Positions 12,708-64,000 of a stretch of 64,000 nt of DNA are shown in pieces. Location of the stretch: the NCBI RefSeq assembly GCF_000497125.1, contig NC_090602.1:868001-932000 (forward strand), read 5' to 3'. This DNA comes from Spironucleus salmonicida (lineage: Eukaryota). A program made the translations under genes and the position numbers. Under the pieces are notes generated by a model, which was not told the origin of the DNA, did no database searches, and saw nothing but the letters and a program-made list of their open reading frames with translations. Position 1 is the first letter of the stretch, and each line of letters starts with the position of its first letter.

Positions 12708-12729
12708 CGGCCCGGAGTGAAAAATAACG

Positions 12730-21420: not shown

Positions 21421-22014
21421 ATGGGTTGCGGCCTCATTGAGCACACTAGCGATCAGTTTCGTATTAACGATGAAACTGTGCGCGACACATAGCATTAACC
21501 TGCCATTAGCTATTAAGAACGCGCCAATAACGATATTACTCACAAAATATTACTTCCAGCACCTGAACCGTAATCAACATCGGTATCAGTTCCAGAGGAG
21601 CTTTTCGAAGCAATAAAGATGAATGAAATTGAGATAGTGTAGCGGTTAGGGGCAAAGTTTGCCAGGCGTTTCGTCGGCGGTAAGACACCTCTGATGGCAG
21701 CGCGTACAGATTGTCAGGCCGCGCTTCTGCTAGGAGGATTAGGCTTGTAGACACGTCAGGGGCGCACTGCGCTGATGATACACGCTAGCTGCGGCTGTCT
21801 AGGTATCTGCTAGCTTTGCCTGCCCGAAGCCCGCATGGTCGATGACGACGGACGTACGGCCCTGATGCACGCGAGTAAGCACGGGCACGCCGAAGTTGTG
21901 CATCTTCTGGCTAGCTACGAAGGGGAAATCAGGGACGACAAGGGGCGCGGCTTTCGGGACGTGTGGGCTGGCGATAGCGCGCAGATTGGAGAGTGCGGTA
22001 AGCAAATTCCGTGA
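21421..22014 (+). CDS. Ankyrin-repeat protein (Protein 21.1-like) with an MGC acylation-type N-terminus (197 aa)
   Basis: GKTPLMAA, GRTALMIHAS, EARMVDDDGRTALMHASKHGHAEVVHLL. Confidence 0.85.
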
Positions 22015-22221
22015 AGCGATTTGGAGGCTGCGTGTGGCGGCAGTTTCTGGTAAGAAAGCGCTCACAGGAGCTATGAAGGGCGTTAGGAACCTCTGAAAAG
22101 TGAGTGCAAGTTACTTCACTGCGCGGGACACTATGGGCTGCATAAATATTTTGCAGCGCCGAATGACTTTGGAGCGGCTCGCTGGACCTCCTGGCAGCGA
22201 CGCTCCAGACGGCGCGCCTCA

Positions 22222-22455
22222 TCACGGGCCGAAGCAGTCCGAGCCCGCGCTGTCGGGGCAGGGGTTGAGGAAGCTCGGCGCCCTGGCCAGGCTGATGCGG
22301 CTGCTGTTGGGAAGGAACATGTCGCGGAGCAGGTCGCTCTGGAGCTGGATGATGTCGATCGCGGGGAAGGGGTCGATGCGGGCCAGCCTGCCGGGGTCCT
22401 GGAAGCCCAGCCTCTGCGTGAGCTGTCTCTGCATCTTCTTGTGGTGCTTGTACAT
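22222..22455 (-). CDS. Hypothetical 77-aa protein (MYKHHKK), copy A
   Basis: AAAATG start, high GC3. Confidence 0.65.
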   Translation of the reverse strand: MYKHHKKMQRQLTQRLGFQDPGRLARIDPFPAIDIIQLQSDLLRDMFLPNSSRISLARAPSFLNPCPDSAGSDCFGP

Positions 22456-22599
22456 TTTGGCAGGTGGCGCAATAGGGCCGAAGGGGCGAATTGTGGCCGC
22501 CGGATTAAGCTGTCACTGGCTCTAACTGTATATGTGAGGCAGTTCGGGCCGTGGTCCCGTGTTTGTACTGTGAAAATGGAGTGGGAACCACGGCCTCGC

Positions 22600-23115
22600 T
22601 CACTCGCCCCCCTGCCACGCCGCCTTGCACTCCACGCCGGCCGGGGGCTGCTGGGGCGCCGCGCCGAGCTGGATCAGCCAGCGACCCTTGACGGTCCAGG
22701 CGGCCTCCTGCGGGCCCCTGCTCTCCAGGAAAAAGTCCCCCGGCACCTCGTAGCAGAAGACGCCGTCGAACTCGAAGTCCGCCATCTCCTCTGCGCGGAT
22801 CTGGTCCTGGAACACCGGGATCAGCGCGTTACGGCACGTGCGCGCGCTCGCCGAGTCCTTGGAGCTCACCACCGCGGCCGCGATGAAATCATCCGAGATG
22901 AGACGCTTCAGGAGCCGGACCTGTGTGAAGTCGGCGCACAGCACCCCGAAGACTGGCTCCTCGGCGCAGCTCTGGCGCACCTGGATCGCGATCCGCAGCA
23001 TCTCCTGGTAGGCGGTCTCGAGCCGGAGCTCCAGTGCAGACTCCAGGTGCTGGGAGGGCTTGTAGAACTCCAGGGCTGCATACTGCGCGATTATCTGGTC
23101 GATGAAGGTGTCCAT
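22600..23115 (-). CDS. Hypothetical 171-aa protein (MDTFIDQ), copy A
   Basis: TATAATA upstream, high GC3, ends GAG-TGA. Confidence 0.75.
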   Translation of the reverse strand: MDTFIDQIIAQYAALEFYKPSQHLESALELRLETAYQEMLRIAIQVRQSCAEEPVFGVLCADFTQVRLLKRLISDDFIAAAVVSSKDSASARTCRNALIPVFQDQIRAEEMADFEFDGVFCYEVPGDFFLESRGPQEAAWTVKGRWLIQLGAAPQQPPAGVECKAAWQGGE

Positions 23116-23459
23116 TCCGCTTTGCGGACAGGGTCGTCAGCGTATTATAATCGGATATTCTCGGGTAGAAGGAGTGTGACAGTATATACGTGGGGTCTAC
23201 GAATCGGTACTGAAAACTGGGTATGATGATCTAGGTGATATATTTTTGGTCACGCCGCTATCAAGCAATGCCAGGAATGAGCGATACCTCATTACCCTGA
23301 TCAATAGGATGGTAGTGTCGAACAGGTAACAGTGTTATACGCTTGTTCCATGGAGTTTGTTCTAAACAAATATCACTGGTCTCTTGATCGGTATTTGATC
23401 AGCGTATTTGTTACACTACTGCGTATCGTTAGAGAAGAATTGTCTGATAGATACTGGAT

Positions 23460-29400: not shown

Positions 29401-29783
29401 GCTCTTCCGCTCCTCCAAGTCCACGCCCGGCAACCTCGTGTCCGTGCTCTTCGCGACCTTCGCGATGTTCTGCGAGCGCAACGGCCTCGGCGTCGCCCCC
29501 TTCCAGTTCGACCGCAGCTTCGTGGCCTTCCTGGCCGATAACCAGGAGGAGGTGTACTTCTGCGAGAACTACGCCGGCTTCCTCAACATCAGCGGGCTCA
29601 AGTGACGTTATTTTTCACTCCGGGCCGTCAAAACTCCGAGGCGTACGACGCGTTCGCGATGTCCTGCAGCCGCACGCCCCGGGACAGCTTGTCCGCCGGT
29701 GCCTCCCGGGGCGTGCAACGAGGTGGGTCCTGCTGCGTCGCGGCCATAGGGTCGTCTGTGAACCACTTCAAGAGCTGGTAGCG
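23460..29783 (+). repeat. Inverted repeat IR1, right arm
   Basis: Reverse complement of 12552..18875. Confidence 0.97.
23543..29605 (+). CDS. SIN3: Sin3-like co-repressor (2020 aa), copy B
   Basis: Single frame through TAG at 25544 and 27452; ends AAG-TGA; same motifs as copy A. Confidence 0.85.
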
Positions 29784-31993: not shown

Positions 31994-32335
31994 TTACTCT
32001 AATTCTAACTTTTACAATATATATTTTTATATAGATATATGGCAATATTACAATATTTTACTTAGACTAAATAATTTAATAATACATATATACATTTTTA
32101 TTCAAAATTTACATTTACAATTTTAGACTCTTTTAGGAATTACAAAACCTATTATATTTTGTTTAAACTAAATTATGCAACCAATAATTGTAAAATATTC
32201 AATTATTGATTTAATTTTGAGAATAAGTTATTTCATAGTCGTCTTATTTTCATATTGACTAAGTCTAAAATAAATCACAATTTTATAATGTTAGATATCC
32301 AATAAAGAGCTGACTAGCTCGCTAGCCTCCGTTGA

Positions 32336-32666
32336 GCAGGCGGTGGAGCTGCTGGGCCGGTTCCCCCGGGTCGTGCTCAACCTCAAGGGCGCCGCACGGC
32401 CCCCGCCCCGCGTCCAGCTGGAGGCGCGCCAGCTGCTGCTCACGATCCGGGCCCGGCCGCAGGCGGTGCTGTGCCTGGACCTGGAGCCGGGGCTGTGCGC
32501 GGGCTTCCAGTTCGTGTGCAAGCACTTCTTCGACACCGCGCACCACCGGAGCGAGCTGGGCTTCGACTTCGACGCCGCGGTCATGCGGGTGGCCGGTGTG
32601 GTCCCGCCCCTGCCGGCGCGCAACACGATCTCGCTCGCGCGGTACTACTGCGAGGACAACGAGTGA
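32336..32666 (+). pseudogene. 3' fragment (~110 codons) of LRR gene 38837..40720
   Basis: No in-frame ATG between an upstream TGA (32256) and the block. Confidence 0.75.
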
Positions 32667-32683
32667 GCTGAGTCCGCTCCAAA

Positions 32684-33145
32684 ATGGCGATGATCGGGCA
32701 GCTCCAGGACGCAGTGCGCGCGGTGCCCTCCTCCTACTTCACGGCCTCCCCCCGCTTCGGGGAGTACGTGGCCGACTACCTGCAGCTGCAGCTGGCGCTC
32801 TACCGCGCCCCCGCGGACCCCGCCGCCCTGGCCGCGCTCCTCCGCCGCCTCCTGCCCTACCAGGCCCCGGGGGCGTACACCGCCGCGCTCTCGGACGCCG
32901 CCGCGCAGCTGGAGAGCCTCCACGAGTTCAGGGCGCTCGCCGAGTCCGCCTGCTTCGAGCGCGGGCCCCTTCTCGCCCGCAAGGCACAGCTCGAGGAGTG
33001 CGCGTTCCTGGCCGACCGCGAGCTGGACCGACTGCAGCAGCGCACGCAGGTGGCCCCCGCCCCCGAGCTGCTGCTGCTCTGGCGCTGCTTCCTCGGCGGC
33101 CTCTTCGTGGCCTCGCTGGCGTCCTTCCGGCGCATGGCGCAGTGA
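32684..33145 (+). CDS. Hypothetical 153-aa protein, copy A
   Basis: AAAATG start, high GC3, ends CAG-TGA. Confidence 0.75.
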   Translation: MAMIGQLQDAVRAVPSSYFTASPRFGEYVADYLQLQLALYRAPADPAALAALLRRLLPYQAPGAYTAALSDAAAQLESLHEFRALAESACFERGPLLARKAQLEECAFLADRELDRLQQRTQVAPAPELLLLWRCFLGGLFVASLASFRRMAQ

Positions 33146-33154
33146 TCTCGTTGT

Positions 33155-33361
33155 TCACTCCAGTAGGCGGAATCCGGCCACGCAGCCCGCCTGCTGCATC
33201 ACCTCCAGCTCGAAGAGCGCCCACGCCTGGGCCCTGGGGTTCGCCGGGTGCAGCACCACGCCGCCGCAGCGCTGGGTGGCCACGATGCCCGGGATGCGCG
33301 CGCAGAGGTGGTCGATGAGGTCCGAGGCCCCCAGGTCCACTGCGATGTCCGAGCAGTCCAT
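33155..33361 (-). CDS. Hypothetical 68-aa protein (MDCSDIAV), copy A
   Basis: GAAATG start, ends GAG-TGA. Confidence 0.7.
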   Translation of the reverse strand: MDCSDIAVDLGASDLIDHLCARIPGIVATQRCGGVVLHPANPRAQAWALFELEVMQQAGCVAGFRLLE

Positions 33362-33630
33362 TTCGGGTTGCGAACCTTGGTGGAAAGGAATGTATTATCG
33401 GACTATAACAATGTTAGAAGAAAAGTATACGAGTGAAATTAGTAGAAATATGAAATCGGTGATATTATAAACCTGTTAGTTTATTAATGTGGTACATACT
33501 TATTTAGGGGTTTATGATGGGGAAGCTTGCTACATTGATACTTTAAGATTATTGCCGGCCAAACTACTGTTCTTGTTCCACCCAGGAATATCCGATTATA
33601 ATACGCTGACGACCCTGTCCGCAAAGCGGA

Positions 33631-34146
33631 ATGGACACCTTCATCGACCAGATAATCGCGCAGTATGCAGCCCTGGAGTTCTACAAGCCCTCCCAGCACC
33701 TGGAGTCTGCACTGGAGCTCCGGCTCGAGACCGCCTACCAGGAGATGCTGCGGATCGCGATCCAGGTGCGCCAGAGCTGCGCCGAGGAGCCAGTCTTCGG
33801 GGTGCTGTGCGCCGACTTCACACAGGTCCGGCTCCTGAAGCGTCTCATCTCGGATGATTTCATCGCGGCCGCGGTGGTGAGCTCCAAGGACTCGGCGAGC
33901 GCGCGCACGTGCCGTAACGCGCTGATCCCGGTGTTCCAGGACCAGATCCGCGCAGAGGAGATGGCGGACTTCGAGTTCGACGGCGTCTTCTGCTACGAGG
34001 TGCCGGGGGACTTTTTCCTGGAGAGCAGGGGCCCGCAGGAGGCCGCCTGGACCGTCAAGGGTCGCTGGCTGATCCAGCTCGGCGCGGCGCCCCAGCAGCC
34101 CCCGGCCGGCGTGGAGTGCAAGGCGGCGTGGCAGGGGGGCGAGTGA
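33631..34146 (+). CDS. Hypothetical 171-aa protein, copy B
   Basis: Same protein as 22600..23115. Confidence 0.75.
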   Translation: MDTFIDQIIAQYAALEFYKPSQHLESALELRLETAYQEMLRIAIQVRQSCAEEPVFGVLCADFTQVRLLKRLISDDFIAAAVVSSKDSASARTCRNALIPVFQDQIRAEEMADFEFDGVFCYEVPGDFFLESRGPQEAAWTVKGRWLIQLGAAPQQPPAGVECKAAWQGGE

Positions 34147-34290
34147 GCGAGGCCGTGGTTCCCACTCCATTTTCACAGTACAAACACGGGACCACGGCCC
34201 GAACTGCCTCACATATACAGTTAGAGCCAGTGACAGCTTAATCCGGCGGCCACAATTCGCCCCTTCGGCCCTATTGCGCCACCTGCCAAA

Positions 34291-34524
34291 ATGTACAAGC
34301 ACCACAAGAAGATGCAGAGACAGCTCACGCAGAGGCTGGGCTTCCAGGACCCCGGCAGGCTGGCCCGCATCGACCCCTTCCCCGCGATCGACATCATCCA
34401 GCTCCAGAGCGACCTGCTCCGCGACATGTTCCTTCCCAACAGCAGCCGCATCAGCCTGGCCAGGGCGCCGAGCTTCCTCAACCCCTGCCCCGACAGCGCG
34501 GGCTCGGACTGCTTCGGCCCGTGA
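34291..34524 (+). CDS. Hypothetical 77-aa protein, copy B
   Basis: Same protein as 22222..22455. Confidence 0.65.
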   Translation: MYKHHKKMQRQLTQRLGFQDPGRLARIDPFPAIDIIQLQSDLLRDMFLPNSSRISLARAPSFLNPCPDSAGSDCFGP

Positions 34525-34731
34525 TGAGGCGCGCCGTCTGGAGCGTCGCTGCCAGGAGGTCCAGCGAGCCGCTCCAAAGTCATTCGGCGCTGCAAAATAT
34601 TTATGCAGCCCATAGTGTCCCGCGCAGTGAAGTAACTTGCACTCACTTTTCAGAGGTTCCTAACGCCCTTCATAGCTCCTGTGAGCGCTTTCTTACCAGA
34701 AACTGCCGCCACACGCAGCCTCCAAATCGCT

Positions 34732-34824
34732 TCACGGAATTTGCTTACCGCACTCTCCAATCTGCGCGCTATCGCCAGCCCACACGTCCCGAAAGCCGCG
34801 CCCCTTGTCGTCCCTGATTTCCCC
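34732..34824 (-). pseudogene. 3' fragment of ankyrin gene 21421..22014
   Basis: GEIRDDKGRG...KQIP* without the ankyrin repeats. Confidence 0.7.
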
Positions 34825-34856
34825 CTCAAAGTCGACTATTCCGGCTCCTAACACCC

Positions 34857-37589: not shown

Positions 37590-38141
37590 TTATAAACGTA
37601 ACTAAAAATTAAAAGTGTATTATAATCAATTTAACCAATAAAATATTTATTCATATATTAATATAAAAAGATACTATATAATAATATATAAATATTTATT
37701 AGTATACGATGCTAGTTTTCACTAAAAGTGGCATTATAATATTATTTAAATATTAAAGTACTTTATATTTATTATAATACGTTTTATTATTTGTAACTAT
37801 ATAATATAAAGATAATTCTTGCTTGAAATTTAAAATTTACTTGTATTATTTAAATTAAATCGTATTGTAGTTAACATAAAGCAGTATGGGGTGCTATTTA
37901 ACTTGGTATCTCTAACCACTATAAACACTATGAAAAAATGAAATCATTTATCAAATCACAAACTATTCAATATTTTCATTTCAATTCTTTTAAAAATAAT
38001 CTAGTATCTTCTATACTTATGTTTATTATTTTGTTATCTTCTTTTACAGATGCAACATAACTATAGTTTCTATGAGTTTCATTCGTATAATACTCTTATC
38101 ATTGCATCAAAATTAAGTCCCACCAAGGTTCGCAACCAGAA

Positions 38142-38348
38142 ATGGACTGCTCGGACATCGCAGTGGACCTGGGGGCCTCGGACCTCATCGACCACCTCTG
38201 CGCGCGCATCCCGGGCATCGTGGCCACCCAGCGCTGCGGCGGCGTGGTGCTGCACCCGGCGAACCCCAGGGCCCAGGCGTGGGCGCTCTTCGAGCTGGAG
38301 GTGATGCAGCAGGCGGGCTGCGTGGCCGGATTCCGCCTACTGGAGTGA
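38142..38348 (+). CDS. Hypothetical 68-aa protein, copy B
   Basis: Same protein as 33155..33361. Confidence 0.7.
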   Translation: MDCSDIAVDLGASDLIDHLCARIPGIVATQRCGGVVLHPANPRAQAWALFELEVMQQAGCVAGFRLLE

Positions 38349-38357
38349 ACAACGAGA

Positions 38358-38819
38358 TCACTGCGCCATGCGCCGGAAGGACGCCAGCGAGGCCACGAAG
38401 AGGCCGCCGAGGAAGCAGCGCCAGAGCAGCAGCAGCTCGGGGGCGGGGGCCACCTGCGTGCGCTGCTGCAGTCGGTCCAGCTCGCGGTCGGCCAGGAACG
38501 CGCACTCCTCGAGCTGTGCCTTGCGGGCGAGAAGGGGCCCGCGCTCGAAGCAGGCGGACTCGGCGAGCGCCCTGAACTCGTGGAGGCTCTCCAGCTGCGC
38601 GGCGGCGTCCGAGAGCGCGGCGGTGTACGCCCCCGGGGCCTGGTAGGGCAGGAGGCGGCGGAGGAGCGCGGCCAGGGCGGCGGGGTCCGCGGGGGCGCGG
38701 TAGAGCGCCAGCTGCAGCTGCAGGTAGTCGGCCACGTACTCCCCGAAGCGGGGGGAGGCCGTGAAGTAGGAGGAGGGCACCGCGCGCACTGCGTCCTGGA
38801 GCTGCCCGATCATCGCCAT
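38358..38819 (-). CDS. Hypothetical 153-aa protein, copy B
   Basis: Same protein as 32684..33145. Confidence 0.75.
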   Translation of the reverse strand: MAMIGQLQDAVRAVPSSYFTASPRFGEYVADYLQLQLALYRAPADPAALAALLRRLLPYQAPGAYTAALSDAAAQLESLHEFRALAESACFERGPLLARKAQLEECAFLADRELDRLQQRTQVAPAPELLLLWRCFLGGLFVASLASFRRMAQ

Positions 38820-38836
38820 TTTGGAGCGGACTCAGC

Positions 38837-40720
38837 TCACTCGTTGTCCTCGCAGTAGTACCGCGCGAGCGAGATCGTGTTGCGCGCCGGCAGGGGCGGG
38901 ACCACACCGGCCACCCGCATGACCGCGGCGTCGAAGTCGAAGCCCAGCTCGCTCCGGTGGCGCGCGGTGTCGAAGAAGTGCTTGCACACGAACTGGAAGC
39001 CCGCGCACAGCCCCGGCTCCAGGTCCAGGCACAGCACCGCCTGCGGCCGGGCCCGGATCGTGAGCAGCAGCTGGCGCGCCTCCAGCTGGACGCGGGGCGG
39101 GGGCCGTGCGGCGCCCTTGAGGTTGAGCACGACCCGGGGGAACCGGCCCAGCAGCTCCACCGCCTGCGCGACGGCGGCAAGTCCCGCTTTATTCCTGCCC
39201 ATGTCAACAAGTCTTAGATCAGTGCTGCTGGCGAGCACAGCCATAAGCTAGGCGATGCAAAGATCGTTTAGCCCTACGTCACGGGCTACAAAGCATGTTA
39301 GATCCAGCATGCGCAGCAACATCAGGACTCCAGGTAACTTCCGGCGCAATTCACGGGTGCTAGACAAGTTTAGGTACCGCAGACGTGTTGCAGTCACATT
39401 ACTGGAGAATACAGACAAACGCAGAGCCTCGCAGGCGATTTTCGAGTACGCTCGCTCCAGGACGCTGAAACACTGACACGGGCCACCACCTAGCTCAGGA
39501 AACTGCGCCCTACCACCCGTGAGATCCAGCCCACGTAAGGCAGGTAGTCGCGGCTGGGCCTGCCATGTTGCATCTGCACAACCAGCTACAAGCTGTCGCC
39601 CGTCTTGGAAGAAGGCCTGGACCCCAACTGCCGTGCTCTGCAGGCGGAGAGCCACAAACTCGAGTCCGACCGGAAGCCCATCGAGGACTTCCGCAAGTTT
39701 GTAAATCGGGTGGTCCACCACGAGCACCCGCAATTACTGCATATCCCGGATCTGGCCGAATAGCCTGCAGCCGCTCCCACCCAGAAATTATGCGCCTATT
39801 TCAAAATGCTTTATGTGCCCAACGTGCTCCAGGGCCTGGAACTTGCAGTTGGCGAGCATCACAGAATCCAGACCCCGCAAATCTACGGGACCGCGGAACT
39901 AGATGTTGTCCATTTCCAGGTGCCGAAAGTGCGCAGCTGCGTCACGAAACTGCCCCGGCTCGCGCTACAGCGCAGGGTCTCTGCGGCTCTGGTTGGCAGC
40001 AAGCAGCGAGCCCGCGCTGGCGAGCAGGGACAAAACATCTGAAAAATCACCCGGCCGCAGGCCAGAATTGCTGACGTCCGCCACGGAGCCCCCGCCCATC
40101 AGCCCGCGAACTTTTCCAATTTCGCGCGCGTCGAATCCCGCGAAAATCCGCGTGTCGGCGACATCCAGCAGCGCCAGCGCGCGCTGCGTGCGCGCGATGT
40201 CCACGAGGACGCCGAATCGGAGCTTGTTGCCTGCGAGGCTGATTTTGCGGAATTCGTTAGCCGCAAAAAGGGCGCCGCCGAGCTCCCGGAGGCCGCATGA
40301 CTGCAGCGAGAGCTCCCGGAGGCCGCAGAGCGCCGGAAGTGGGAAATCGACGCGGCTTCCGGAGAGGTCCAGAATTCGTGCAGACGCGTGGCGCGTGATA
40401 TTAAGCGGGCCCAGGGCGAGCTGCTTGCGGTAGATCGCGTTCAGGGGCTACGAGGTGAGCAGAGGCGGCCGCGCTGCGAAAATGCTGTCGATTACCGTGA
40501 AATCGTGAAACTCAGCGTAGGCCTCCTGGCTTCCCAGAGTTAGCTGCTTGCTGGCCGCGAATACGCGGTAAAAGTGGTCCTCGAGGGGCGCCTGCAGGCT
40601 CAAATCGTGGAATTACTGAAAGCTCAGGTGCGGGGTAGCGAAAAGCAGCAGAAACCGGGGTAGCGCCGCTAGCTGTGCGGTACCGAGCCGTTCTGCTGCG
40701 AGCTGGAGCAGTGTTTTCAT
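38837..40720 (-). CDS. Leucine-rich-repeat protein (627 aa)
   Basis: One frame in table 6; ARILDLSGS, LRELSLQSCGL, FRKISLAGNKL, LRGLDLTG, LRYLNLSS, LRLVDMGRN; ends GAG-TGA. Confidence 0.85.
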
Positions 40721-40797
40721 CTTAAATTCAGTTTAATAAAAATGATATTATTATATAATATATAATACAATTTGCTTTCAAATTTCATTCCCCTTCA

Positions 40798-42999
40798 ATG
40801 GACATCCAGGCACTCATAACGGACCACCTGGCAGCAGTTTCAGACCCGCTGATACACCCAGCCATTACGTCACTGATGGCACTAATTTTCAGGAGCCCCG
40901 CACCCACCCCCACCGCCCTGTCAAAAATTCTAGAACAGCGCCCAACTGATATGACGTTCTACAGCCAGAAAGCTCCCTCGAGCGATTTCCGGTCCGATCT
41001 GGATACAACCCTGCACATAGACTAGGAAATCAGCGATACGGCAGCGGTAGCAGTCCACTGGCGCGACAGGGACACCGACGAGCGCGGCGGCGACCCGCTC
41101 TGCGCATTCCACGCCATCGAGATGATGAGCGGAAATCTCTTAGAAGGGCCGTTTATAAACCTTATGTACCAGGAAAATGACCAGGAGGAGCCTGAGGAGG
41201 AGTTCAGCAAAACCGACTTCTACATCGAAAAAATCGCCCCAGACACGGAGCCGCTACCGATGCAGGCTGATCTGGACGATATCGACTTCGAAAGCGGCAA
41301 TATACGCGAAACTGAGCTCCTGCACTTCGAAAATGGCCCAGATGTGCAGCTTCTTGACAGGAAGCCGAGCGAAACCGACCCAGCTACTCTAAACAGCGAA
41401 AATTCATCTCCCACGTTCCACCCCACCAAACCCTGCAACATACTCTCCCCGCAGAGCAAATCCCAGGTCCTAAAGTCCCTAAACGACCACTGCAACCGCC
41501 CGAATTCAGCAGATTTCGTGCAGACCGCAGAAGACTCAACCCCACTCACAACGCAGCAGAAGATCACGTTTGAGCTCCAAAATCACATCGCAGAAGTCAC
41601 GCGCGAAATCATCAATAAGACGCTTCACATTCGCATGAATTCCGGGCTAATTTCGCCTCTAAAGCAGCCACAAGTCCTGAAACTTTTAGCCCAAAAAGAC
41701 GTCGATTCACACTACTTTTTTGCGACCTCACAAATCGATATTCCAACGTATTATAATGTGTATTAGGAGGCCACCGGATTTTTTGTCTACAGCGAAATCA
41801 AGGATCAAGTACTCGTTCTAGCGAATCGTTACGTGATAGTAGAGCCGAATTTCAACGACGACGGCCAATTCGGGCTCCTAATGGTCGCTTATGACGTCAA
41901 AAATGCTGAATTCGTGGCCGTCAAAATGTGCAAAAACGTCGAATATTTCTAGCAGCTCCTGAACGAAATCCGCACTTTAATCTACATAAACAGCTACGAC
42001 AGCGTAAATAATTACGAGAATTTCGCGCTCCTAAAAGACTATTTCATGCAATTTTCGACACTTTTTATCGTCTTTGAGTTCCTGGGAGACAATTTGTACC
42101 AAATCGCCCAAAAGTCAAAATCCGAAAAGGAGCGGAAAGTCGTTTTCAATTTGAATTCTTTGAAAAAAATTACTCAGAAAATCGTGCAAAGTGTGAACTT
42201 TTTGGGCTCTCTGGGGATCCTGCATTTCGACCTGAAGCCCGAGAACATCGTAATCAAGAACATCCAGCAGCCCGGGGACGTCAGAATGGTCGAAAAAGAA
42301 GCGGAATTCGACGATTACGCGAAGGTCGCAAACGTCATTTCGCGCGAATTTGACGTCCAGAAAGTGCAAAATTTTCCCGATTTTTCCGATTTCGACGTCG
42401 ATTTTGACGTCAAATTGATCGATATCGGCTCGCACCAATTCTTCGAAAACGGCCAGACGCCGTACGTCCAGAGCCGCTTCTACCGCGCCCCGGAGGTCTT
42501 TTTGAAGATTCCGTTTGACGGCCGAACGGAGACGTTCAGTTTGGGCTGCGTTCTGTACGAATTGCTGACCTCAAAACCGCTCTTCGTGACGCACGTGGAC
42601 TGCGCGAATTACGCGCACCAGCTGGCGAGCTTTATCGGCCTTTTGGGGCCCATTCCGGAATGGATGATTTTGTAGGGTCAGGATTCGCATTTGTACTTTA
42701 CGGAGCAATACGAGCTTTTCGCGAACAAGGACGCGCTGGTTGAGGGCTATTACGACGAATTCGGCGATTAGACGGTCGAGGAAATCGAGTCTATTGACGG
42801 GCTGTACGTCATTTTGAAGCCTCTGAAAAAGGACATCAGGGAGCTGATTTAGGAGCAGTGCAAGGAGCTGTATGATGTGGATGAGCTGAGTAGCGATATG
42901 CGTGATTTGGTCGATTTTATAGCCAGCTGCCTCGAGCTGGACATGAATAAGAGGATGTTCCCCGAGGAACTCGTGAAAATGAACTGGATTGCAAAGTGA
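40798..42999 (+). CDS. CMGC kinase, DYRK family (DYRKP-like), 733 aa
   Basis: VAVK, HFDLKPEN, LIDIGS, YVQSRFYRAPEV, SLGCVLYEL; ends AAG-TGA. Confidence 0.9.
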
Positions 43000-51106: not shown

Positions 51107-54100
51107 ATGGAGTTCGACCTTCTGACGACACCAGCCGCGATGAGCACAGCAGAAAGCAGACCACTACCGACCATAATCGAAGTCCCATAGCCGATCCCCG
51201 CCAACCCGCTGAAGGCGATCCGCCACTCGGTCGTCTTCCCGCCAGAAACGACGCCACCGGCCTCGCTAAGTGCCGATATTTTCACGCTACCACCGGTAGC
51301 AAATCCTGCCAAAACCTTCCCGTTCACTCTAGATCCGTTCCAGGAGAAGGCCATCGCGGCGCTCAACCGCGGCGAGTCCGTGATGGTTTCCGCACATACA
51401 TCCGCCGGGAAAACGGCCATCGCGGAGTATGCCATCTCGATCTGCGTGCAGCGCGGCCAGAAAGTCGCATACACTTCCCCAATTAAGGCGCTTTCGAACC
51501 AGAAGTTCAGAGACCTCTCCCTGACCTACGACAGCGTGGGCCTGCTCACGGGCGACTCCACCGTGAACAAGCAGGCCCAGATCCTTGTTATGACGACAGA
51601 AATCCTACGCAACATGCTGCAGCAGGGCGGTGAGCTACTGCGCGAGCTTGGCTGCGTCGTTTTCGACGAAGTGCACTACATGCGAAACGCAGAGCGTGGT
51701 GTGGTCTGGGAGGACTGCATCAGCCAGCTGAACAGCAAAATGACGTTCGTTTTCCTCTCTGCAACGATCCCCAACGCCGCAGAATTCGCAGGCTGGGTCT
51801 GCAGCATCCACGGTAAGCCCATGCACGTCATTTACACCGAATTTAGACCCGTTCCGCTCCAATTTTGCATCTGCCCAATCGGCGGAACGGAGGTCTTCCA
51901 CGCCTTCAGCTCCGACGACCGGCAGCTGAACACCGCGAACATCGCAAAGGCGCGCCAGATGCTGCCGTTTCAGGGCGGAAAGCAGGGCGGAATGACCGGC
52001 AAATTGAAGCAGAAAATGATGAATGAGACGATTCTGACGTGCCTGAAAATGCTCAAAAGCAAGCAAATCCTGCCCGTAATCGTCTTCAGCTTCGGCAAGG
52101 CGCGCTGCGAGGAGCTCGCTCAGATGCTGCTAAAAGAGGGCCAAATCGGCTCCCTGCTGTCGCAGTCGCAACAGGATGCCGTGGAGCTCATTTTCAGCGC
52201 CGCGCTGCGCGAAATCGACCCAGCGGACCAGCAGCTGAAGCAGATCGTCCAGGCGCGCCAGCTGCTGCTCCGTGGCGTCGCTGTGCACCATTCTGGCCTG
52301 CTGCCGTTCGTGAAGGAGGTGACCGAAATCCTCTTTCAGGAGGACCTCGTAAAGGTCATTTTCGTCACGGAAACGTTCGCGATGGGCCTGAATTTGCCTG
52401 CGCGCTGCGTGGTCTTCACGGACCTGCAGAAGTACGACGGACAGCAAAATCGCTACGTGCAATCGGGCGAATTCATCCAAATGGCGGGCCGCGCGGGGCG
52501 CCGCGGGCTGGACACGCAGGGGGTCGTGATTTCGTTCTTCGCGAGCCAGGACGACTGCAGCGCGTCGCTGGACGTCATGCGCGGCGGCGCTGAGGCGCTG
52601 AATTCGAGCTACAAAATCGGCTACTCGCAGCTCGTGAACTATTTGCGAATTGAGGGTTTCTCGGCCGAATAGGCGATTTCTAGGAGCTTCCTGCAGTTCC
52701 AGCGCGATTTCCGGCTTCCGCGCTGCGCGAATTCGTTATATCAGATCGAAATCGCACTTTTGCAGTTCGAAAAGCAGTTTTCTGACGCCGCCACGGGCCT
52801 TGCGCTGCCGGAGACGCTCCAATTCCTCGATTTGGAGGAATTAAAATTTCGCGAAATGCTGAAATTGATGGAAATGGGAAGGGAGCCGCAGCTCGAAAAG
52901 TAGCTGGTTTCGCGTCTCGTGAGGGGTCGAATTTTGCAAATTTCTGGCGACGGGCAGAATTTCGGGCCCTGCGTTTTGCTGGGAAGCAGTGTCTAGGGCG
53001 GTGCGCTGTTCCTGGACGTTCTGGCGCCGCTGGTGGCGCCTAAGCAGTACAACGCAGCGAAGCGGTCGAGCGAGCCCGCGGCGGTGCTGAATTCGTGCAA
53101 ATCGCGCGATTTCGCGCCCTCTGACCGCTTCGTTGAGGATTTGCTGCAAAATAGCGAATTTTCGTCGTTTTTGAGCCCCAAAACGGCCGATTTGGACGAC
53201 ATTTTGGCCGAAAATGCTTCGAATTTGGTCGGTCTGAGCGACTCAGAGCTGTGCCGCCCGGAGTTCAAATGCTGCGAAACGGTGAGCCACGAAATCAATT
53301 AAAAAATGAACAATTTGACTTCAAATTGCGTTTTTCGCTTTATTATGGAGCGGAAAAATGTGCATTATTAAACGATATTATTCGATAAAGCAAATTTCGT
53401 TCCAATTGTCTTTAGAGTTCCGATTTCGTGTGTGTCGGAAATCAGCACCGTTTACGTGAAGAATCTGCCGGTTTCGGCTGCGGATTACGACGATAGGAAG
53501 CTCATTTTGACGAAGTTTATGGCCGTTTTGGTGCAGCTTTTCGAGCGCCAGAAAGGCGATTTGGAGGAGGTTTTCGTGTTCAGAGACGATATAATACCGA
53601 AATTGCAGTTCGATCAACTCGAAAATATAAATGTGAAATATGTCGAATAATAATAGCGAGTATAGAAAATTTAGGAACTTTTAAAAACAAATTTCTACAG
53701 TTATTACAAATATTTTAATGATTATTATATAAAATCAGGCAATATTCATGAAATTCTACTGTAAATTTTGAAGCTCAAAAGGCGGCAAAATCTGCTCTCC
53801 AACGAGCTTAAGTCAGGCTCCAAGGTCCTGGTTGAGGACCTGAAGAACAAGAAGCTGCTCCTGCAGCACCTGAAATACTTCGATTTCGAGTCGCAGACCG
53901 CGCTCGAAAAGGGCAAAATCGCTAGCAAAATCAACGCCGTGAACGAGCTGATCGTCGTGGAGGCGATCTTCGGGAACTTGTTTTCTGACGCGTCTGTCCC
54001 AGTCTTCTGCGGTGTCGTCTGCGCGCTGCTGGGCGAGCGCGTGCGCGGCCAGGAGGCGGCTCTGAGCGCCGAGCTGGAGGCCCCGCTGCAGCGACTTACG

Positions 54101-54454
54101 GATGTCGTTTCTGGCCTCCTGGACGCCTGCGCCGTCTACGGCGTCGAGCTCGAAACGGGAATCACGCGGAGCGACGAGCTCGTGGACCGCAACGCCGCGT
54201 AGGCTGCATTTCTGTGGGCCGATTAGCGTAGTTTGCAAGAGATTCTGGACGAAATTCCGTCGCTTTTCGAGGGCAGTGTCGTCCGGATGTTCCGGCGGCT
54301 CGTGACGGGCCTGGAGCAGGTCCAGGAGGCGGTGGCCGGCTGGGGTGACGGTGCGCTGAGTACTAAGTGCGCTGATGCAATAAAAGTCGTAAATAGGGGG
54401 CTGGTGCGCGCCGATTCGCTTTACATCATCGATGAACAGCCGTAGGAAGATTGA
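51107..54454 (+). CDS. MTR4: Ski2-like RNA helicase MTR4 (1115 aa)
   Basis: FPFTLDPFQ, SAHTSAGKT, SPIKALSNQK, DEVHY, LSAT, TETFAMGLN, QMAGRAGRRG, C-terminal RGLVRADSLY; all fragments in one frame. Confidence 0.93.
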
Positions 54455-56210: not shown

Positions 56211-56678
56211 GCAAATAGTGGGAGATATTATTATATCAAAATTGTGAATTAAAATTGATTTTCAACTGCAAATTCATTACTGTGTAATAATAAAATTAAA
56301 AAAGTGAAAACAGACTAGTTACGGAAATACGCTTATTTAAAATCTGATATAAGCGTTTTGCTTAACTTGAAGATAGGGATTTTTACTAATAGATTTCACT
56401 AAGCGCTCAGGTGAGTTTTAATGATAGATTAATTGATTTCAAGCATAGAAATACATAATTATTGGGATCGTTACGAATATGGGGAAACTGGATATACAAA
56501 AATGGCAAAACATTAATATACGCAGAATGGACACTAAGTTGTTAAATTAATTGGAGATGGTATTTAGTTTTCATTTTTAACACATCTGTATCTGAAATAT
56601 CATTTTTTAGTATAATGTGCATTTATATATGTATTCATGCAATTATACATTTACTGATTTATTTTCACTTCCTTGATA

Positions 56679-59600
56679 ATGAAAGCAACTTATACTATTC
56701 TAAATTTTAAAGGTGAATAGATTTTTCAGCTTGACATTGTTTTAAAGGATAGTTTTTTATACTTCCTTAATCTAAATCAGTTAGCTTAATATGCTTCTGC
56801 TCTCAATGAGAGTTACATTTCAATTAATATTAATACAGTAGAGAATTTAAAAATATTTCATGTCTTTTTAATTATGTATCATTAAAAATTAATATTAAAT
56901 GAATTTCCTATAAAGAATTATGTTATTAATTATAATATTTCTCATGATGATATTTAAGAATCGTTTATTTCAGAACTGTGGTCTAATTTAGGTATTCTAT
57001 TAGTGCATTTAGGTTACAATGTACATTAGAGTTTTAAAAGTCCATTTAGAAAAAATATATTAGATTATAATTTTCATGTTGTCACCAGTTTATACTAGGA
57101 ATTTTAGTTTTCTAAATAATAAATTTAGTCTATATCACTTGACTTATCTTCATTAAACATCATTGTATAATTATAATCACTAATTTTATAAGAAACAAGT
57201 TAAAGAAAACCTAATTTTTTGGCTTTTATTTATGGATTATCAGCTAATTTCTTAACTTTATAGAATTAAAATGAGTTGACTAATAATAGTGATATAATAG
57301 AATATTTGCTTTAATCTGAAATTATTTTTTAAGATTCTAAATCAACTAGTTCTATCTAAACATTAAAATTTCATAATATTTTACATCTTCCATTACATTT
57401 ATCTAGAGATATTAACTCTGACCTATTTAAATTTTTATGCACTCCTTCATTTATTTTTAAAACAGAACATTTTATTTTGCAATCTCTTTACACTAAAGAC
57501 CATATATTAACGAAAAATGGTATTTTAAGCAATAGTTCTAGATCAGGGAAGTCAGTTTCTTTACTTTCAACTTATTACTATTATTAATATTCTTTAAGAA
57601 ATGTTACACTTTACATCTAGTGCGCTGCTTAAGGTTCATAGCCAATCTATATCAATTCTAGCCTTAATTATTAAGATGCTTTATAATTATTATTTAAGTC
57701 GTAGAATTATTAGTTTGAGAAGACTAAATATACTTAAATTATGAGTCTGGTACGATAAGACATATTTGAATTATATCAACAGAATAAAAGATTTTAAAAA
57801 TAAAAAAATGTATTGATTAATTTTAAGTAAATCTTTATCCAGTCTACTAGCATTGATTTTTAAAAATTCCTTGAAAAATTTTAATAAAATAACGATAATT
57901 TCTTTAATTATAAAAGTTAAAAAGTATTAAATGATATAAACGATACTGAAGACGTATCGTTATATAAAGCTAATCAAATTTTTAAATTACATTAAATTTT
58001 GTTAGATAAATCTATTTAGGCATTTATTTTTAATGAAGAGGTTCTCTATCCTTTGTAACTTTCTTAATAATAGTTATACTAATAATTATTTGGTAATAAT
58101 AAAAGTTTAGTGTATGAAGTTTAATTTATTTTATTAACATATATTAATACAACATTTGTTGATTATTTTGAGTTAAATGAATATTAACAGTTAAAAGACT
58201 ATATTGAGAATCACTTCGAATAGTTATGTTAGTAAATTAACTGGTAAGATGAATTTTATTTAGCAATGACCAATAGCAATTTTATCACGTATTTATATTA
58301 GAATCAGAATGAAAATTAAATCTCTATAATTATTCATAATTGTAATTCTTTTATCAGTTAACTAACATTGGATTAGTAGTTATTATTGAATACTCATAAT
58401 CAATATTAAAATTTTTAAACAGTTTTATAAAATAAGGAGGAATAAAATTTATAATAATCCTAACTGATACTCTTGCTAGAGCTACTGTAATTCTTATATA
58501 CTAGCTTTTCTTTATTTAAGACCTGTAAGTCATATAGTATTATGAATTCTAATTTAATTGCCTTCTAGAACTAATAGTTTCGACTAGATGTTGCCATTAC
58601 TCTAGAAACTATTTTCATTAATTTAAAAAATGATTTGCTAAAGTTTTAAAAACATTAGGTCATCGTCAGCGTCGTCAATATTGTCAGAGATATCAAAAGT
58701 GTTACTGAAAATGCCATCGGCCTGTCATAGGACATTTAGGATGCCATTGCGCAATAAGATGTGAAAGCTATTCTGAACAAAGTTACAGATGAACCCTGGG
58801 AGGACCAGCGGCTATCCACTCTGCTAGAGCTGCTGAAAGCTCTATTAGTGCACTACCCATCTATTTTAACAGATTCATTTTGTACCTGTATAACGAATAT
58901 TTTAACTTAGATTTCTTAGCAGAATGACTTACTTTTAGATTTATCAAAAGTTTTGTCCAACGATGAGGGAATCCAGAACTAGTTTATACGTTAGTAAACT
59001 AGTGAAGTCATCGCCAGCGTCGTCAATATTGTCAGAGATATCAAAAGCGTTACTAAAAATACCATCGGCCTGCCATAGGACATTTAGGATGCCATTGCAC
59101 AATAAGATGTGAAAGCTATTCTGAACAAAGTTCCAGATGAACCCTGGAAGGACCAGCGGGTATCCACTCTGCTAGAGCTGCTGAAAGCTCTATTAGTGCA
59201 CTACCCATCTATTTTAACAGATTCATTTTGTACCTGTATAACGAATATTTTAACTTAGATTTCTTAGCAGAATGACTTACTTTTAGATTTATCAAAAGTT
59301 TTGTCCAACGATGAGGGAATCCAGAACTAGTTTATACGTTAGTAAACTAGTGAAGTCATCGCCAGCGTCGTCAATATTGTCAGAGATATCAAAAGCGTTA
59401 CTAAAAATACCATCGGCCTGCCATAGGACATTTAGGATGCCATTGCGCAATAAGATGTGAAAGCTATTCTGAACAAAGTTCCAGATGAACCCTGGAAGGA
59501 CCAGCGGCTATCCACTCTGCTAGAGCTGCTGAAAGCTCTATTAGTGCACTACCCATCTATTTTAACAGATTCATTTTGTACCTGTATAACGAATATTTTA

Positions 59601-62600
59601 ACTTAGATTTCTTAGCAGAATGACTTACTTTTAGATTTATCAAAAGTTTTGTCCAACGATGAGGGAATCCAGAACTAGTTTATACGTTAGTAAACTAGTA
59701 AAGTCATCGTCAGCGTCGTCAATATTGTCAGAGATATCAAAAGCGTTACTAAAAATACCATCGGCCTGCCATAGGACATTTAGGATGCCATTGCGCAATA
59801 AGATGTGAAAGCTATTCTGAACAAAGTTCCAGATGAACCCTGGAAGGACCAGCGGCTATCCACTCTGCTAGAGCTGCTGAAAGCTCTATTAGTGCACTGT
59901 CCATTGTTTATCAATACGAAAGTATAGTAAAACATGTAGGTTATTTTATTTGGCCTCAAGAGCTAATAGATTAGACTAGATGTTGCAGATTGCCTAGAAA
60001 TTATCAAGAAGAATCATGTAAATGATTTGCTAAAGTTTTAAAAACATTAGGTCATCGCCAGCGTCGTCAATATTGTCAGAGATATCAAAAGTGTTACTAA
60101 AAATACCATCGGCCTGTCATAGGACATTTAGGATGCCATTGCGCAATAAGATGTGAAAGCTATTCTGAACAAAGTTACAGATGAACCCTGGGAGGACCAG
60201 CGGTTATCCACTCTGCTAGAGCTGCTGAAAGCTCTATTAGTGCACTACCCATCTATTTTAACAGATTCATTTTGTACCTGTATAACGAATATTTTAACTT
60301 AGATTTCTTAGCAGAATGACTTACTTTTAGATTTATCAAAAGTTTTGTCCAACGATGAGGGAATCCAGAACTAGTTTATACGTTAGTAAACTAGTGAAGT
60401 CATCGCCAGCGTCGTCAATATTGTCAGAGATATCAAAAGCGTTACTAAAAATACCATCGGCCTGCCATAGGACATTTAGGATGCCATTGCGCAATAAGAT
60501 GTGAAAGCTATTCTGAACAAAGTTCCAGATGAACCCTGGAAGGACCAGCGGCTATCCACTCTGCTAGAGCTGCTGAAAGCTCTATTAGTGCACTGTCCAT
60601 TGTTTATCAATACGAAAGTATAGTAAAACATGTAGGTTATTTTATTTGGCCTCAAGAGCTAATATATTCGACTAGATGTTGCCATTACTATAGAAACTAT
60701 TTTCATTAATTTTAAAAATGATTTGCTACAGTTTTAAAAACATTAGGTCATCGCCAGCGTCGTCAATATTGTCAGAGATATCAAAAGTGTTACTGAAAAT
60801 ACCATCGGCCTGCCATAGGACATTTAGGATGCCATTGCGCAATAAGATGTGAAAGCTATTCTGAACAAAGTTCCAGATGAACCCTGGAAGGACCAGCGGC
60901 TATCCACTCTGCTAGAGCTGCTGAAAGCTCTATTAGTGCACTGTCCATTGTTTATCAATACGAAAGTATAGTAAAACATGTAGGTTATTTTATTTGGCCT
61001 CAAGAACTAATAGATTAGACTAGATGTTGCAGATTGCCTAGAAATTATCAAGAAGAATCCTGTAAATGATTTGCTAAAGTTTTAAAAACATTAGGTCATC
61101 GTCAGCGTCGTCAATATTGTCAGAGATATCAAAAGTGTTACTAAAAATACCATCGGCCTGTCATAGGACATTTAGGATGCCATTGCGCAATAAGATGTGA
61201 AAGCTATTCTGAACAAAGTTCCAGATGAACCCTGGAGGACCAGCGGCTATCCACTCTGCTAGAGCTGCTGAAAGCTCTATTAGTGCACTACCCATCTATT
61301 TTAACAGATTCATTTTGTACCTGTATAACGAATATTTTAACTTAGATTTCTTAGCAGAATGACTTACTTTTAGATTTATCAAAAGTTTTGTCCAACGATG
61401 AGGGAATCCAGAACTAGTTTATACGTTAGTAAACTAGTGAAGTCATCGCCAGCGTCGTCAATATTGTCAGAGATATCAAAAGCGTTACTAAAAATACCAT
61501 CGGCCTGCCATAGGACATTTAGGATGCCATTGCGCAATAAGATGTGAAAGCTATTCTGAACAAAGTTCCAGATGAACCCTGGGAGGACCAGCGGCTATCC
61601 ACTCTGCTAGAGCTGCTGAAAGCTCTATTAGTGCACTGTCCATTGTTTATCAATACGAAAGTATAGTAAAACATGTAGGTTATTTTATTTGGCCTCAAGA
61701 ACTAATAGATTAGACTAGATGTTGCAGATTGCCTAGAAATTATCAAGAAGAATCCTGTAAATGATTTGCTAAAGTTTTAAAAACATTAGGTCATCGTCAG
61801 CGTCGTCAATATTGTCAGAGATATCAAAAGTGTTACTAAAAATACCATCGGCCTGTCATAGGACATTTAGGATGCCATTGCGCAATAAGATGTGAAAGCT
61901 ATTCTGAACAAAGTTCCAGATGAACCCTGGGAGGACCAGCGGCTATCCACTCTGCTAGAGCTGCTGAAAGCTCTATTAGTGCACTGTCCATTGTTTATCA
62001 ATACGAAAGTATAGTAAAACATGTAGGTTATTTTATTTGGCCTCAAGAGCTAATAGATTAGACTAGATGTTGCAGATTGCCTAGAAATTATCAAGAAGAA
62101 TCATGTAAATGATTTGCTAAAGTTTTAAAAACATTAGGTCATCGCCAGCGTCGTCAATATTGTCAGAGATATCAAAAGCGTTACTAAAAATACCATCGGC
62201 CTGTCATAGGACATTTAGGATGCCATTGCGCAATAAGATGTGAAAGCTATTCTGAACAAAGTTACAGATGAACCCTGGGAGGACCAGCGGCTATCCACTC
62301 TGCTAGAGCTGCTGAAAGCTCTATTAGTGCACTACCCATCTATTTTAACAGATTCATTTTGTACCTGTATAACGAATATTTTAACTTAGATTTCTTAGCA
62401 GAATGACTTACTTTTAGATTTATCAAAAGTTTTGTCCAACGATGAGGGAATCCAGAACTAGTTTATACGTTAGTAAACTAGTAAAGTCATCGTCAGCGTC
62501 GTCAATATTGTCAGAGATATCAAAAGCGTTACTAAAAATACCATCGGCCTGCCATAGGACATTTAGGATGCCATTGCGCAATAAGATGTGAAAGCTATTC

Positions 62601-64000
62601 TGAACAAAGTTCCAGATGAACCCTGGGAGGACCAGCGGCTATCCACTCTGCTAGAGCTGCTGAAAGCTCTATTAGTGCACTGTCCATTGTTTATCAATAC
62701 GAAAGTATAGTAAAACATGTAGGTTATTTTATTTGGCCTCAAGAACTAATAGATTAGACTAGATGTTGCAGATTGCCTAGAAATTATCAAGAAGAATCCT
62801 GTAAATGATTTGCTAAAGTTTTAAAAACATTAGGTCATCGTCAGCGTCGTCAATATTGTCAGAGATATCAAAAGTGTTACTAAAAATACCATCGGCCTGT
62901 CATAGGACATTTAGGATGCCATTGCGCAATAAGATGTGAAAGCTATTCTGAACAAAGTTACAGATGAACCCTGGGAGGACCAGCGGCTATCCACTCTGCT
63001 AGAGCTGCTGAAAGCTCTATTAGTGCACTGTCCATTGTTTATCAATACGAAAGTATAGTAAAACATGTAGGTTATTTTATTTGGCCTCAAGAGCTAATAG
63101 ATTAGACTAGATGTTGCAGATTGCCTAGAAATTATCAAGAAGAATCATGTAAATGATTTGCTAAAGTTTTAAAAACATTAGGTCATCGCCAGCGTCGTCA
63201 ATATTGTCAGAGATATCAAAAGCGTTACTAAAAATACCATCGGCCTGTCATAGGACATTTAGGATGCCATTGCGCAATAAGATGTGAAAGCTATTCTGAA
63301 CAAAGTTACAGATGAACCCTGGGAGGACCAGCGGCTATCCACTCTGCTAGAGCTGCTGAAAGCTCTATTAGTGCACTACCCATCTATTTTAACAGATTCA
63401 TTTTGTACCTGTATAACGAATATTTTAACTTAGATTTCTTAGCAGAATGACTTACTTTTAGATTTATCAAAAGTTTTGTCCAACGATGAGGGAATCCAGA
63501 ACTAGTTTATACGTTAGTAAACTAGTGAAGTCATCGCCAGCGTCGTCAATATTGTCAGAGATATCAAAAGCGTTACTAAAAATACCATCGGCCTGCCATA
63601 GGACATTTAGGATGCCATTGCGCAATAAGATGTGAAAGCTATTCTGAACAAAGTTCCAGATGAACCCTGGAAGGACCAGCGGCTATCCACTCTGCTAGAG
63701 CTGCTGAAAGCTCTATTAGTGCACTACCCATCTATTTTAACAGATTCATTTTGTACCTGTATAACGAATATTTTAACTTAGATTTCTTAGCAGAATGACT
63801 TACTTTTAGATTTATCAAAAGTTTTGTCCAACGATGAGGGAATCCAGAACTAGTTTATACGTTAGTAAACTAGTGAAGTCATCGCCAGCGTCGTCAATAT
63901 TGTCAGAGATATCAAAAGCGTTACTAAAAATACCATCGGCCTGCCATAGGACATTTAGGATGCCATTGCGCAATAAGATGTGAAAGCTATTCTGAACAAA
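56679..64000 (+). CDS. Giant tandem-repeat protein (>2400 codons, runs off the window); 1-nt frameshift at 61235/61236 in this sequence
   Basis: No in-frame TGA from 56679 to the frameshift; about 660-aa unique N-terminus, then 116-aa amphipathic helical repeats; invisible to the ORF track because of TAA/TAG density. Confidence 0.8.
58659..64000 (+). repeat. Tandem array of at least 16 x 348-bp units (195-bp constant + 153-bp variable)
   Basis: Unit starts 58659, 59007, 59355, 59703, 60051, 60399, 60747, 61095, 61442, 61790, 62138, 62486, 62834, 63182, 63530, 63878. Confidence 0.97.

Follow-up and report, generated by a model that had tools for sequence, protein, structure and literature searches.

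A tandem array of two-part coding units in Spironucleus salmonicida, the probable central repeat region of one very large gene

Anatomy of the array and the code in which it is read

The 3′ end of a 64,000-nt stretch of the genome of the salmon parasite Spironucleus salmonicida (assembly GCF_000497125.1, contig NC_090602.1, positions 868,001 to 932,000 of the forward strand; hereafter the window, with positions counted from its first nucleotide) is occupied by a protein-coding tandem array, preceded by a non-repeated N-terminal domain (N-domain). Tandem Repeats Finder reported a single array at 58655..64000 with a period of 348, 15.4 copies, 85% matches and a score of 6568, and a 23-nt anchor occurred 16 times, at an interval of 348 nt in 14 of 15 cases and of 347 nt in the remaining one. 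Each unit comprises a 195-nt constant block (65 amino acids, aa) followed by a 153-nt cassette (51 aa) of type A, type B or, in a single case, a hybrid C, and within the window the cassettes succeed one another as A A A B A C B A B B A B B A A. An initial annotation, made from the letters of the sequence, had described this two-part unit and this order; its strings were reproduced letter for letter, and the order matched exactly. The features of the locus, all on the + strand, are as follows.

56673..58436, +: N-terminal non-repeat domain; the open reading frame (ORF) opens with TTG at 56673; GC 0.21
58437..58658, +: degenerate 'unit 0', made of a diverged constant-block tail (58437-58505) and a B-like cassette termed 'pre' (58506-58658)
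58659..64000, +: tandem array, 15 complete 348-nt units and the first 123 nt of unit 16
58659, 59007, 59355, 59703, 60051, 60399, 60747, 61095, 61442, 61790, 62138, 62486, 62834, 63182, 63530, 63878, +: starts of the array units
58854..59006, 59202-59354, 59550-59702, 60246-60398, 61289-61441, 62333-62485, 63377-63529, 63725-63877, +: the eight copies of cassette A
59898..60050, 60942-61094, 61637-61789, 61985-62137, 62681-62833, 63029-63181, +: the six copies of cassette B
60594..60746, +: cassette C, a hybrid whose head is of type B and whose tail resembles 'pre'
61234..61236, +: frame break, a 1-nt deletion (a G missing from a GGG run) in constant block 8, which leaves unit 8 (61095-61441) with 347 nt
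61442-62485 (units 9-11) and 62486-63529 (units 12-14), +: higher-order repeat of 1044 nt in two copies (const-B, const-B, const-A), differing at 3 of 1044 nt

Copies of a given cassette type are nearly identical, the eight A copies varying at one of 153 sites and the six B copies at two, and the constant block varies at nine of its 195 sites. Between types, A and B share 34% of their nucleotides in ungapped alignment, which by our own estimate, made without a control, is roughly the level of unrelated AT-rich DNA, and identity falls off within 2 nt at both cassette edges. The constant block has a GC content of 0.456, compared with 0.288 in A as well as B and 0.21 in the N-domain. Cassette C is, as the initial annotation had it, a B hybrid whose tail resembles the sequence just before unit 1: nucleotides 1-72 are identical to B at 71 of 72 positions, and nucleotides 73-153 match 'pre' at 77 of 81 positions and B at 61 of 81. 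'Pre' is itself similar to cassette B (z 16.5; 0 of 500 shuffles reach the score), BLASTP aligned the B unit with the N-terminal part at 52% identity over 50 aa (E 1e-9), and the constant-block tail of unit 0 aligns with the first constant block of P0003, a paralogue described below. Residue 23 of the constant block (P or S) tracks the cassette that precedes it, being P after A in 9 of 9 cases and S after B in 8 of 8 (17 of 17 A/B cases), so the true type-specific module is larger than 51 aa.

With the standard stop codons (table 11) no ORF of at least 80 aa lies inside the array, and each unit contains ~12 in-frame TAA or TAG codons, at identical places in every copy. Genetic code 6 (table 6), in which TAA and TAG specify Gln, opens 56673..61271 and 61283..64000. 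Within the repeat gene TGA occurs at 0 of 2442 codons in frame, compared with 56 and 72 occurrences in the other two frames, and the same holds for its non-repeated first 662 codons (56673-58658), with none in frame and 9 and 26 off-frame; its Gln codons are TAA or TAG in 204 cases and CAA or CAG in 58. Three other genes of the window speak for the same code:

51107-54454, +: Mtr4/Ski2-type helicase, 1115 aa, with DEAD, Helicase_C and DSHCT domains and a sub-threshold Mtr4 beta-barrel; 15 TAA/TAG codons
36096-37589, −: aldehyde dehydrogenase, 497 aa, covering profile positions 45-457 of 461; 22 TAA/TAG codons; GC 0.31
40675-42999, +: protein kinase; 8 TAA/TAG codons

All three are intron-less and show full-length Pfam domains only under code 6, and they, together with a GC-rich ORF of 2036 aa, end in TGA and contain no TGA in frame. 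Since TGA is absent from the frame of the repeat gene and other genes of the window are whole only under code 6, the array is coding sequence in an organism that uses this code, with TGA as its sole stop. Fungal repeat-induced point mutation (RIP), which the mosaic of GC content (0.25-0.65) and the excess of TAA and TAG had suggested, was rejected: RIP indices are ordinary, the apparent stops are identical in all copies, and code 6 explains the other genes.

The whole gene and its relatives

The code-6 ORF 56673..61271 is continuous across the N-domain into the array. Candidate starts lie at ATG 56679 or ATG 56874, the latter aligning with the start of P0003, and residues 68-562 of the N-domain are 42% identical to that paralogue, with conserved motifs in the alignment. 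The deletion in unit 8 is the sole disruption of the reading in ~2440 codons. Around it the database holds two gene models: P0001 (909 aa) begins at nt 58542 and stops at the TGA that the shifted frame runs into (ORF end 61271), and P0013 (1736 aa) starts at nt 61673, agrees with the window translation at every one of the 776 aa before the window ends, and extends past it with three more cassettes and then a C-terminal domain (C-domain). Window and P0013 combined give a full reading of ~3403 aa from TTG 56673 (with an X at the break), which consists of an N-domain of ~590 aa, a degenerate unit, the repeats, a degenerate terminal unit and a C-domain of ~555 aa starting near residue 2850; its 19 constant blocks alternate with 18 cassettes, arranged AAABACBABBABBAAABB. 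For annotation, this means that two 'hypothetical proteins' of 909 and 1736 aa and an unannotated upstream ORF read as one protein of ~3400 aa, split by a single homopolymer indel. The S. salmonicida assembly was made from PacBio RS II data and polished with Quiver and, using short reads, with Pilon, according to the genome paper (PMC9509377), and an indel at a homopolymer among near-identical repeats may be genuine or an error. Short-read contigs stop at 58657, where the array begins.

A phmmer search with the first 1200 aa against 1.84 billion representatives returned nine proteins at E<=0.001, of which four are named (all 'hypothetical/uncharacterized protein, Spironucleus salmonicida'), three are unnamed MetaClust entries resembling the named ones, and two are products of this locus. 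Three profile searches (with the C-domain, the N-domain and the C-domain again), run among 8000 word-sharing candidates, added only P0012 and P0013. Neither kind of search found a named relative outside S. salmonicida, which, given this scope, is weak evidence of absence. Within the species the same architecture recurs: in P0003 the N-domain is followed by two units and the beginning of the C-domain, and a near-complete C-domain is carried by another model, P0010; P0004 and P0012 carry 6-10 units and the C-domain; and P0011 (2605 aa) has all three parts. The repeat unit measures 116 aa in P0002, the database fragment of the gene described here, and 117 aa in the paralogues; units of the array align with those of P0003, P0004 and P0011, and the paralogues keep the unit at 25-38% protein identity and equal length. 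P0013 and P0010 share 51% identity in the C-domain, and many alignment columns are invariant among the C-domains of the paralogues. N-domain, 116/117-aa repeats and C-domain are found in the same order in these proteins, which, judged from their alignments, appear to constitute a lineage-restricted family of at least five loci that share one plan and differ in carrying from 2 to >15 units. Paralogous loci bear the tags SS50377_21281/2, SS50377_27782, SS50377_27793 and SS50377_28427.

The initial annotation had not recognised the family, and we likewise obtained no match to a curated one; Pfam candidates (CKI, Ned1_M, DPRP, RecG_N and others) proved to be artefacts of summed scores, with no stretch passing alone. 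Literature searches by locus tag and for Spironucleus together with repeats found no publication on this repeat family. In the lineages of P0012/P0005 and P0011/P0007 a hydrophobic segment of ~55 aa takes the place of a stretch of constant block, at one and the same site of the unit, and does so twice within P0012. One of these segments is given as a predicted transmembrane helix (PMC6397501 supplement), and the segment could be an insertion or a read-through element.

AlphaFold2 models of the repeats had a mean predicted local distance difference test score (pLDDT) of 40.9 from a single sequence and of 56.5, with a predicted template-modelling score (pTM) of 0.30, from a 12-row alignment, and both runs produced helices only, ~six per unit, with a long helix across the unit boundary. 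Of the alpha-solenoid proposed by the initial annotation, the helical part is supported, in that predicted secondary structure points to an all-helical repeat protein, and a solenoid fold would be a lead only. Foldseek found no match in the PDB at E<=0.001; the best had an E of 0.077, with template-modelling (TM) scores of 0.14-0.19, and the weak list consisted of HEAT/ARM-type solenoids. A VIA-wide fold search gave Z scores of up to 8.9 over hairpins of 57-61 residues, within the noise stated for helical models. Sequence and profile searches of the PDB reached E values of 0.17-0.57 only, namely matches to the vinculin head domain (E 0.17-0.36), which did not recur with a repeat-only profile or in fold searches, and, with the repeat-only profile, the HEAT-like AlkF (E 0.57). 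The predicted helices with their helix-turn-helix hairpins resemble HEAT/ARM solenoids, and the weak structural and profile matches were mostly HEAT/ARM/TOG or HEAT-like. In contrast to HEAT/ARM repeats, the array has no Pfam HEAT/ARM match, its unit is 116 aa long rather than ~40 aa, and the structural matches lie within the noise of helical models. No strong transmembrane segment and no signal-like N-terminus were found, the maximum Kyte-Doolittle mean over 19 aa being 1.71, inside the repeat. The protein might conceivably be a soluble cytoplasmic all-helical rod or scaffold, in which the number of units would set length or valency between two conserved end domains.

Expression data exist for two relatives, both classed as 'unique hypothetical' proteins (PMC6397501). 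The paralogue SS50377_17142 (P0007) rose with a log2 fold change of 2.36 in oxygen (adjusted P 5e-11) and of 2.08 without antioxidants (adjusted P 6e-9), and SS50377_ja063 (P0009), a relative of the N-domain, rose by 3.48 and 6.18, respectively (PMC6397501 supplement). As more than 1000 genes rise in this experiment, these data show transcription of the family, not a role. Runs X5 and X6, which are RNA by guess only, gave contigs that were patchy on the N-domain (depth ~4-15) and heavy on the repeat, and were not used for expression. For the biology of this salmon parasite, the locus defines an orphan, stress-induced family of large repeat proteins that are predicted to be helical.

Origin of the cassettes and of their order

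Compared directly, A and B show no similarity by BLASTP, and in Smith-Waterman alignment they score no better than chance (z −0.1; 264 of 500 shuffles score at least as high as observed), in agreement with the initial annotation, which had found no obvious similarity between their DNA. Both have counterparts in the paralogue P0004, which also carries two cassette types: A matches type 2 (z 9.8), B matches type 1 (z 11.7) and also type 2 (z 6.4), and types 1 and 2 are likewise similar to one another (z 10.4); in none of these four comparisons did any of 500 shuffles attain the observed score. Because each matches a P0004 type and those types match each other, A and B are homologous by transitivity: both descend from one 51-aa segment of an ancestral repeat, they are old and strongly diverged, and the two types were distinct before the paralogues split. 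The cassettes are not unrelated, interchangeable parts, each type being shared with paralogues. Cassette length is 51 aa in all seven compared, and the unit adjoining the N-domain is B-like in every paralogue seen, as is 'pre' here. The equal length of A and B reflects common descent, not design, and a packing constraint probably lies behind it as well.

The constant blocks of A-units and B-units of this gene are 95-97% identical to each other and 29-38% identical to those of paralogues; P0004 follows the same trend more weakly, at 79-85% for its constant blocks and 37-41% for its cassettes, so that the shared block is homogenised inside each of the two genes. Variants at the 5′ end of the constant block follow the preceding cassette and those at the 3′ end are shuffled relative to both neighbouring cassettes, which places exchange points inside the constant block. 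The 1044-nt duplication, with its three differences, accounts alone for the 'ABBABB' part of the order, and hybrid C indicates that exchange also occurs within cassettes where local identity allows. The constant block had been proposed as a recombination handle for shuffling cassettes in frame; exchange points do seem to lie inside it, but no programmed mechanism is supported, and C shows exchange inside a cassette too. A higher-order duplication (units 9-11 against 12-14) together with greater identity within the gene than between paralogues marks this as a higher-order-repeat array of the concerted-evolution type, and the order of A and B is most readily understood as the outcome of ordinary unequal recombination between two old subtypes.

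As a mechanism we envisage concerted evolution, in which units undergo unequal crossing-over and gene conversion; these exchanges would start and end only where units remain alike, homogenising the constant block and raising its GC content, while A and B would be too different for mutual conversion and would both persist, copied as whole units or multi-unit blocks. A binary-looking order could arise in this way without dedicated machinery. GC-biased conversion may have been long-running in the constant block, with the cassettes amplified only recently. Duplicated regions of the S. salmonicida genome average 44.7% GC and the remainder 30.7% (PMC9509377). A homogenised block with a GC of 0.456 beside subtype blocks with a GC of 0.288, diverged beyond recognition, makes the gene a clean natural case of partial concerted evolution, and this contrast offers a way to test, in a diplomonad, GC-biased conversion and the extent to which exchange depends on homology.

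Several known systems share parts of this pattern. Spider-silk spidroin genes, such as AcSp1, are very large, have non-repeat end domains flanking near-identical repeats of ~100-200 aa, undergo concerted evolution and have paralogues that vary in repeat number. The gene described here likewise combines conserved end domains with long homogenised repeats and has paralogues with different repeat numbers; unlike spidroins, to which it has no sequence relation, its repeats are predicted to be all-helical and are Q/L/I-rich rather than composed of silk motifs, and it intersperses two subtypes that differ sharply outside the homogenised block they have in common. In the higher-order repeats of alpha satellite, built from two monomer types, and in the super-repeats of nebulin, multi-unit blocks are duplicated whole. 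The array resembles them in that distant units are more alike than neighbours (3 of 1044 nt) and two monomer types are interspersed; in contrast to these systems as compared, it is protein-coding and only part of the unit is homogenised across types.

The analogies drawn by the initial annotation, to transcription activator-like (TAL) effectors and to fungal NLRs, hold only in the general sense that near-identical tandem protein repeats readily undergo unequal recombination. The repeats of TAL effectors measure 33-35 aa and have two adjacent specificity residues, whereas the unit of the array is 116 aa long, its variation consists of a 51-aa block in two types with within-type differences at 1-2 of 153 nt, and Pfam gave no TAL match. 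Fungal NLRs carry WD40, ANK or TPR repeats with hypervariable sites behind a NACHT or NB-ARC domain; Pfam detected neither domain in the 1532-aa reading or in the paralogues, the array has no hypervariable positions, and the organism is not a fungus. The locus is a homogenised higher-order tandem-repeat gene, which is a known kind, and not a new programmable protein.

Taken together, the array is probably the middle, repetitive part of a single very large nuclear code-6 gene of a diplomonad, shaped by concerted evolution. That the gene has instead been recently inactivated, the 1-nt deletion being real and the array a decaying or freely expanding remnant, we hold to be somewhat unlikely. The deletion does lie within constant block 8, annotators split the locus, variation in the array is mostly non-synonymous, and the genome paper lists 194 pseudogenes (PMC9509377). 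Yet this is one disruption in ~2440 codons with no in-frame TGA, and an indel error is plausible at a homopolymer site among near-identical repeats in a PacBio RS II assembly (PMC9509377); the copies are too alike for decay to show either way. An assembly artefact in the number or order of the array's units is improbable too, although the array is ~6.6 kb of units that are 95-100% identical, short-read contigs collapse it, and the depths of two runs disagree, a constant-block piece standing at 17.7x its flank in run X2 and 7.1x in run X1, and an A piece at 12.5x and 3.4x, respectively, ratios that are not copy numbers. Against such an artefact, variant haplotypes are ordered along the units in a consistent higher-order pattern, run X2 with its 17.7x comes close to the 19 constant blocks of the gene models, and long-read pile-ups backed the resolved duplications that were checked at other loci (PMC9509377).

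A non-coding 348-bp satellite that happens to be open under code 6 would account for a tandem array with satellite-like higher-order structure, but it is scarcely credible beside the absence of TGA from the 2442 in-frame codons and its frequency off-frame, the continuity of frame between the array and conserved N- and C-domains, and the retention of a unit of the same length in paralogues at 25-38% protein identity. A selected combinatorial system, as the initial annotation's binary-coded protein would require, is highly improbable; in it the constant block would serve as a handle dedicated to recombination, and A and B modules would be rearranged from cell to cell or strain to strain so as to programme a surface for binding. 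Such a system would fit the sharp in-frame homology boundaries, the equal cassette lengths, the presence of both module types in several paralogues, and the disagreement in unit number and order between two database entries for the 3′ part of the array, which lead into an identical terminal unit (...B B A C in P0002 and ...A A A B B in P0013). In contrast, the order holds a plain three-unit duplication, recombination has taken place inside a cassette as well (C), and hypervariable specificity positions are lacking, A differing at one of 153 nt; the older assembly behind models of the P0002 type was fragmented, with 452 contigs and 267 partial genes (PMC9509377), so collapse is likely, though unproven, to be the simpler cause of the disagreement. 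A related possibility, which we consider just as improbable, is that an A-like/B-like alphabet is kept under selection in several paralogues, with mitotic unequal exchange in the GC-rich constant block yielding variants of order and number between cells or strains. If so, this variation would adjust the valency of a stress-induced helical scaffold, or its pattern of partners, in a binucleate parasite, and the locus would be a eukaryotic intracellular counterpart of contingency loci.

Several points weigh against a single large gene under concerted evolution, or against parts of that account. The frame is broken once, and the database splits the locus into P0001 and P0013 with the N-domain outside both, so the locus may be a pseudogene. 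Differences between copies number 10 non-synonymous and 3 synonymous by our reading, with no sign of purifying selection within the array. The suggested GC-biased conversion draws on the DNA of this gene and not on that of paralogues, and the homology of A and B is reached through a paralogue intermediate, the direct comparison giving a z of −0.1. The poor models (pLDDT 40.9 and 56.5) leave 'solenoid', 'rod' and any function unproven. The expression evidence is that of relatives of this gene; reads of repeat-derived RNA can map to several paralogues, and ~1000-1400 genes rise in the same stress experiment, making the induction unspecific (PMC6397501).

Repeats and other elements in the rest of the window

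Upstream of the genes listed above, the window contains a perfect inverted repeat at 12552-18884 and 23451-29783, with arms of 6333 nt that are 100% complementary and are separated by a spacer of 4566 nt. Each arm holds the GC-rich (0.65) code-6 ORF of 2036 aa already mentioned, with 3 in-frame TAG codons and no Pfam match. Around this palindrome lie further GC-rich pairs, two of them inverted (21919-23170 and 33576-34827, 1252 nt, 100%; 32322-33383 and 38120-39181, 1062 nt, 99%) and one direct (878-1177 and 5614-5913, 300 nt, 100%).

Neighbouring genes form a mosaic of GC content and codon use, from the aldehyde dehydrogenase at 0.31, whose Gln codons are mostly TAA or TAG, to the 2036-aa ORF at 0.65, in which Gln is encoded by CAG in 139 cases and by TAG in 3. 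Two further code-6 ORFs, at 2756-4687 (− strand) and 19137-20801 (+ strand), cross long microsatellites that read (LI)n, (IN)n, (IQ)n and (YK)n, and are putatively coding only.

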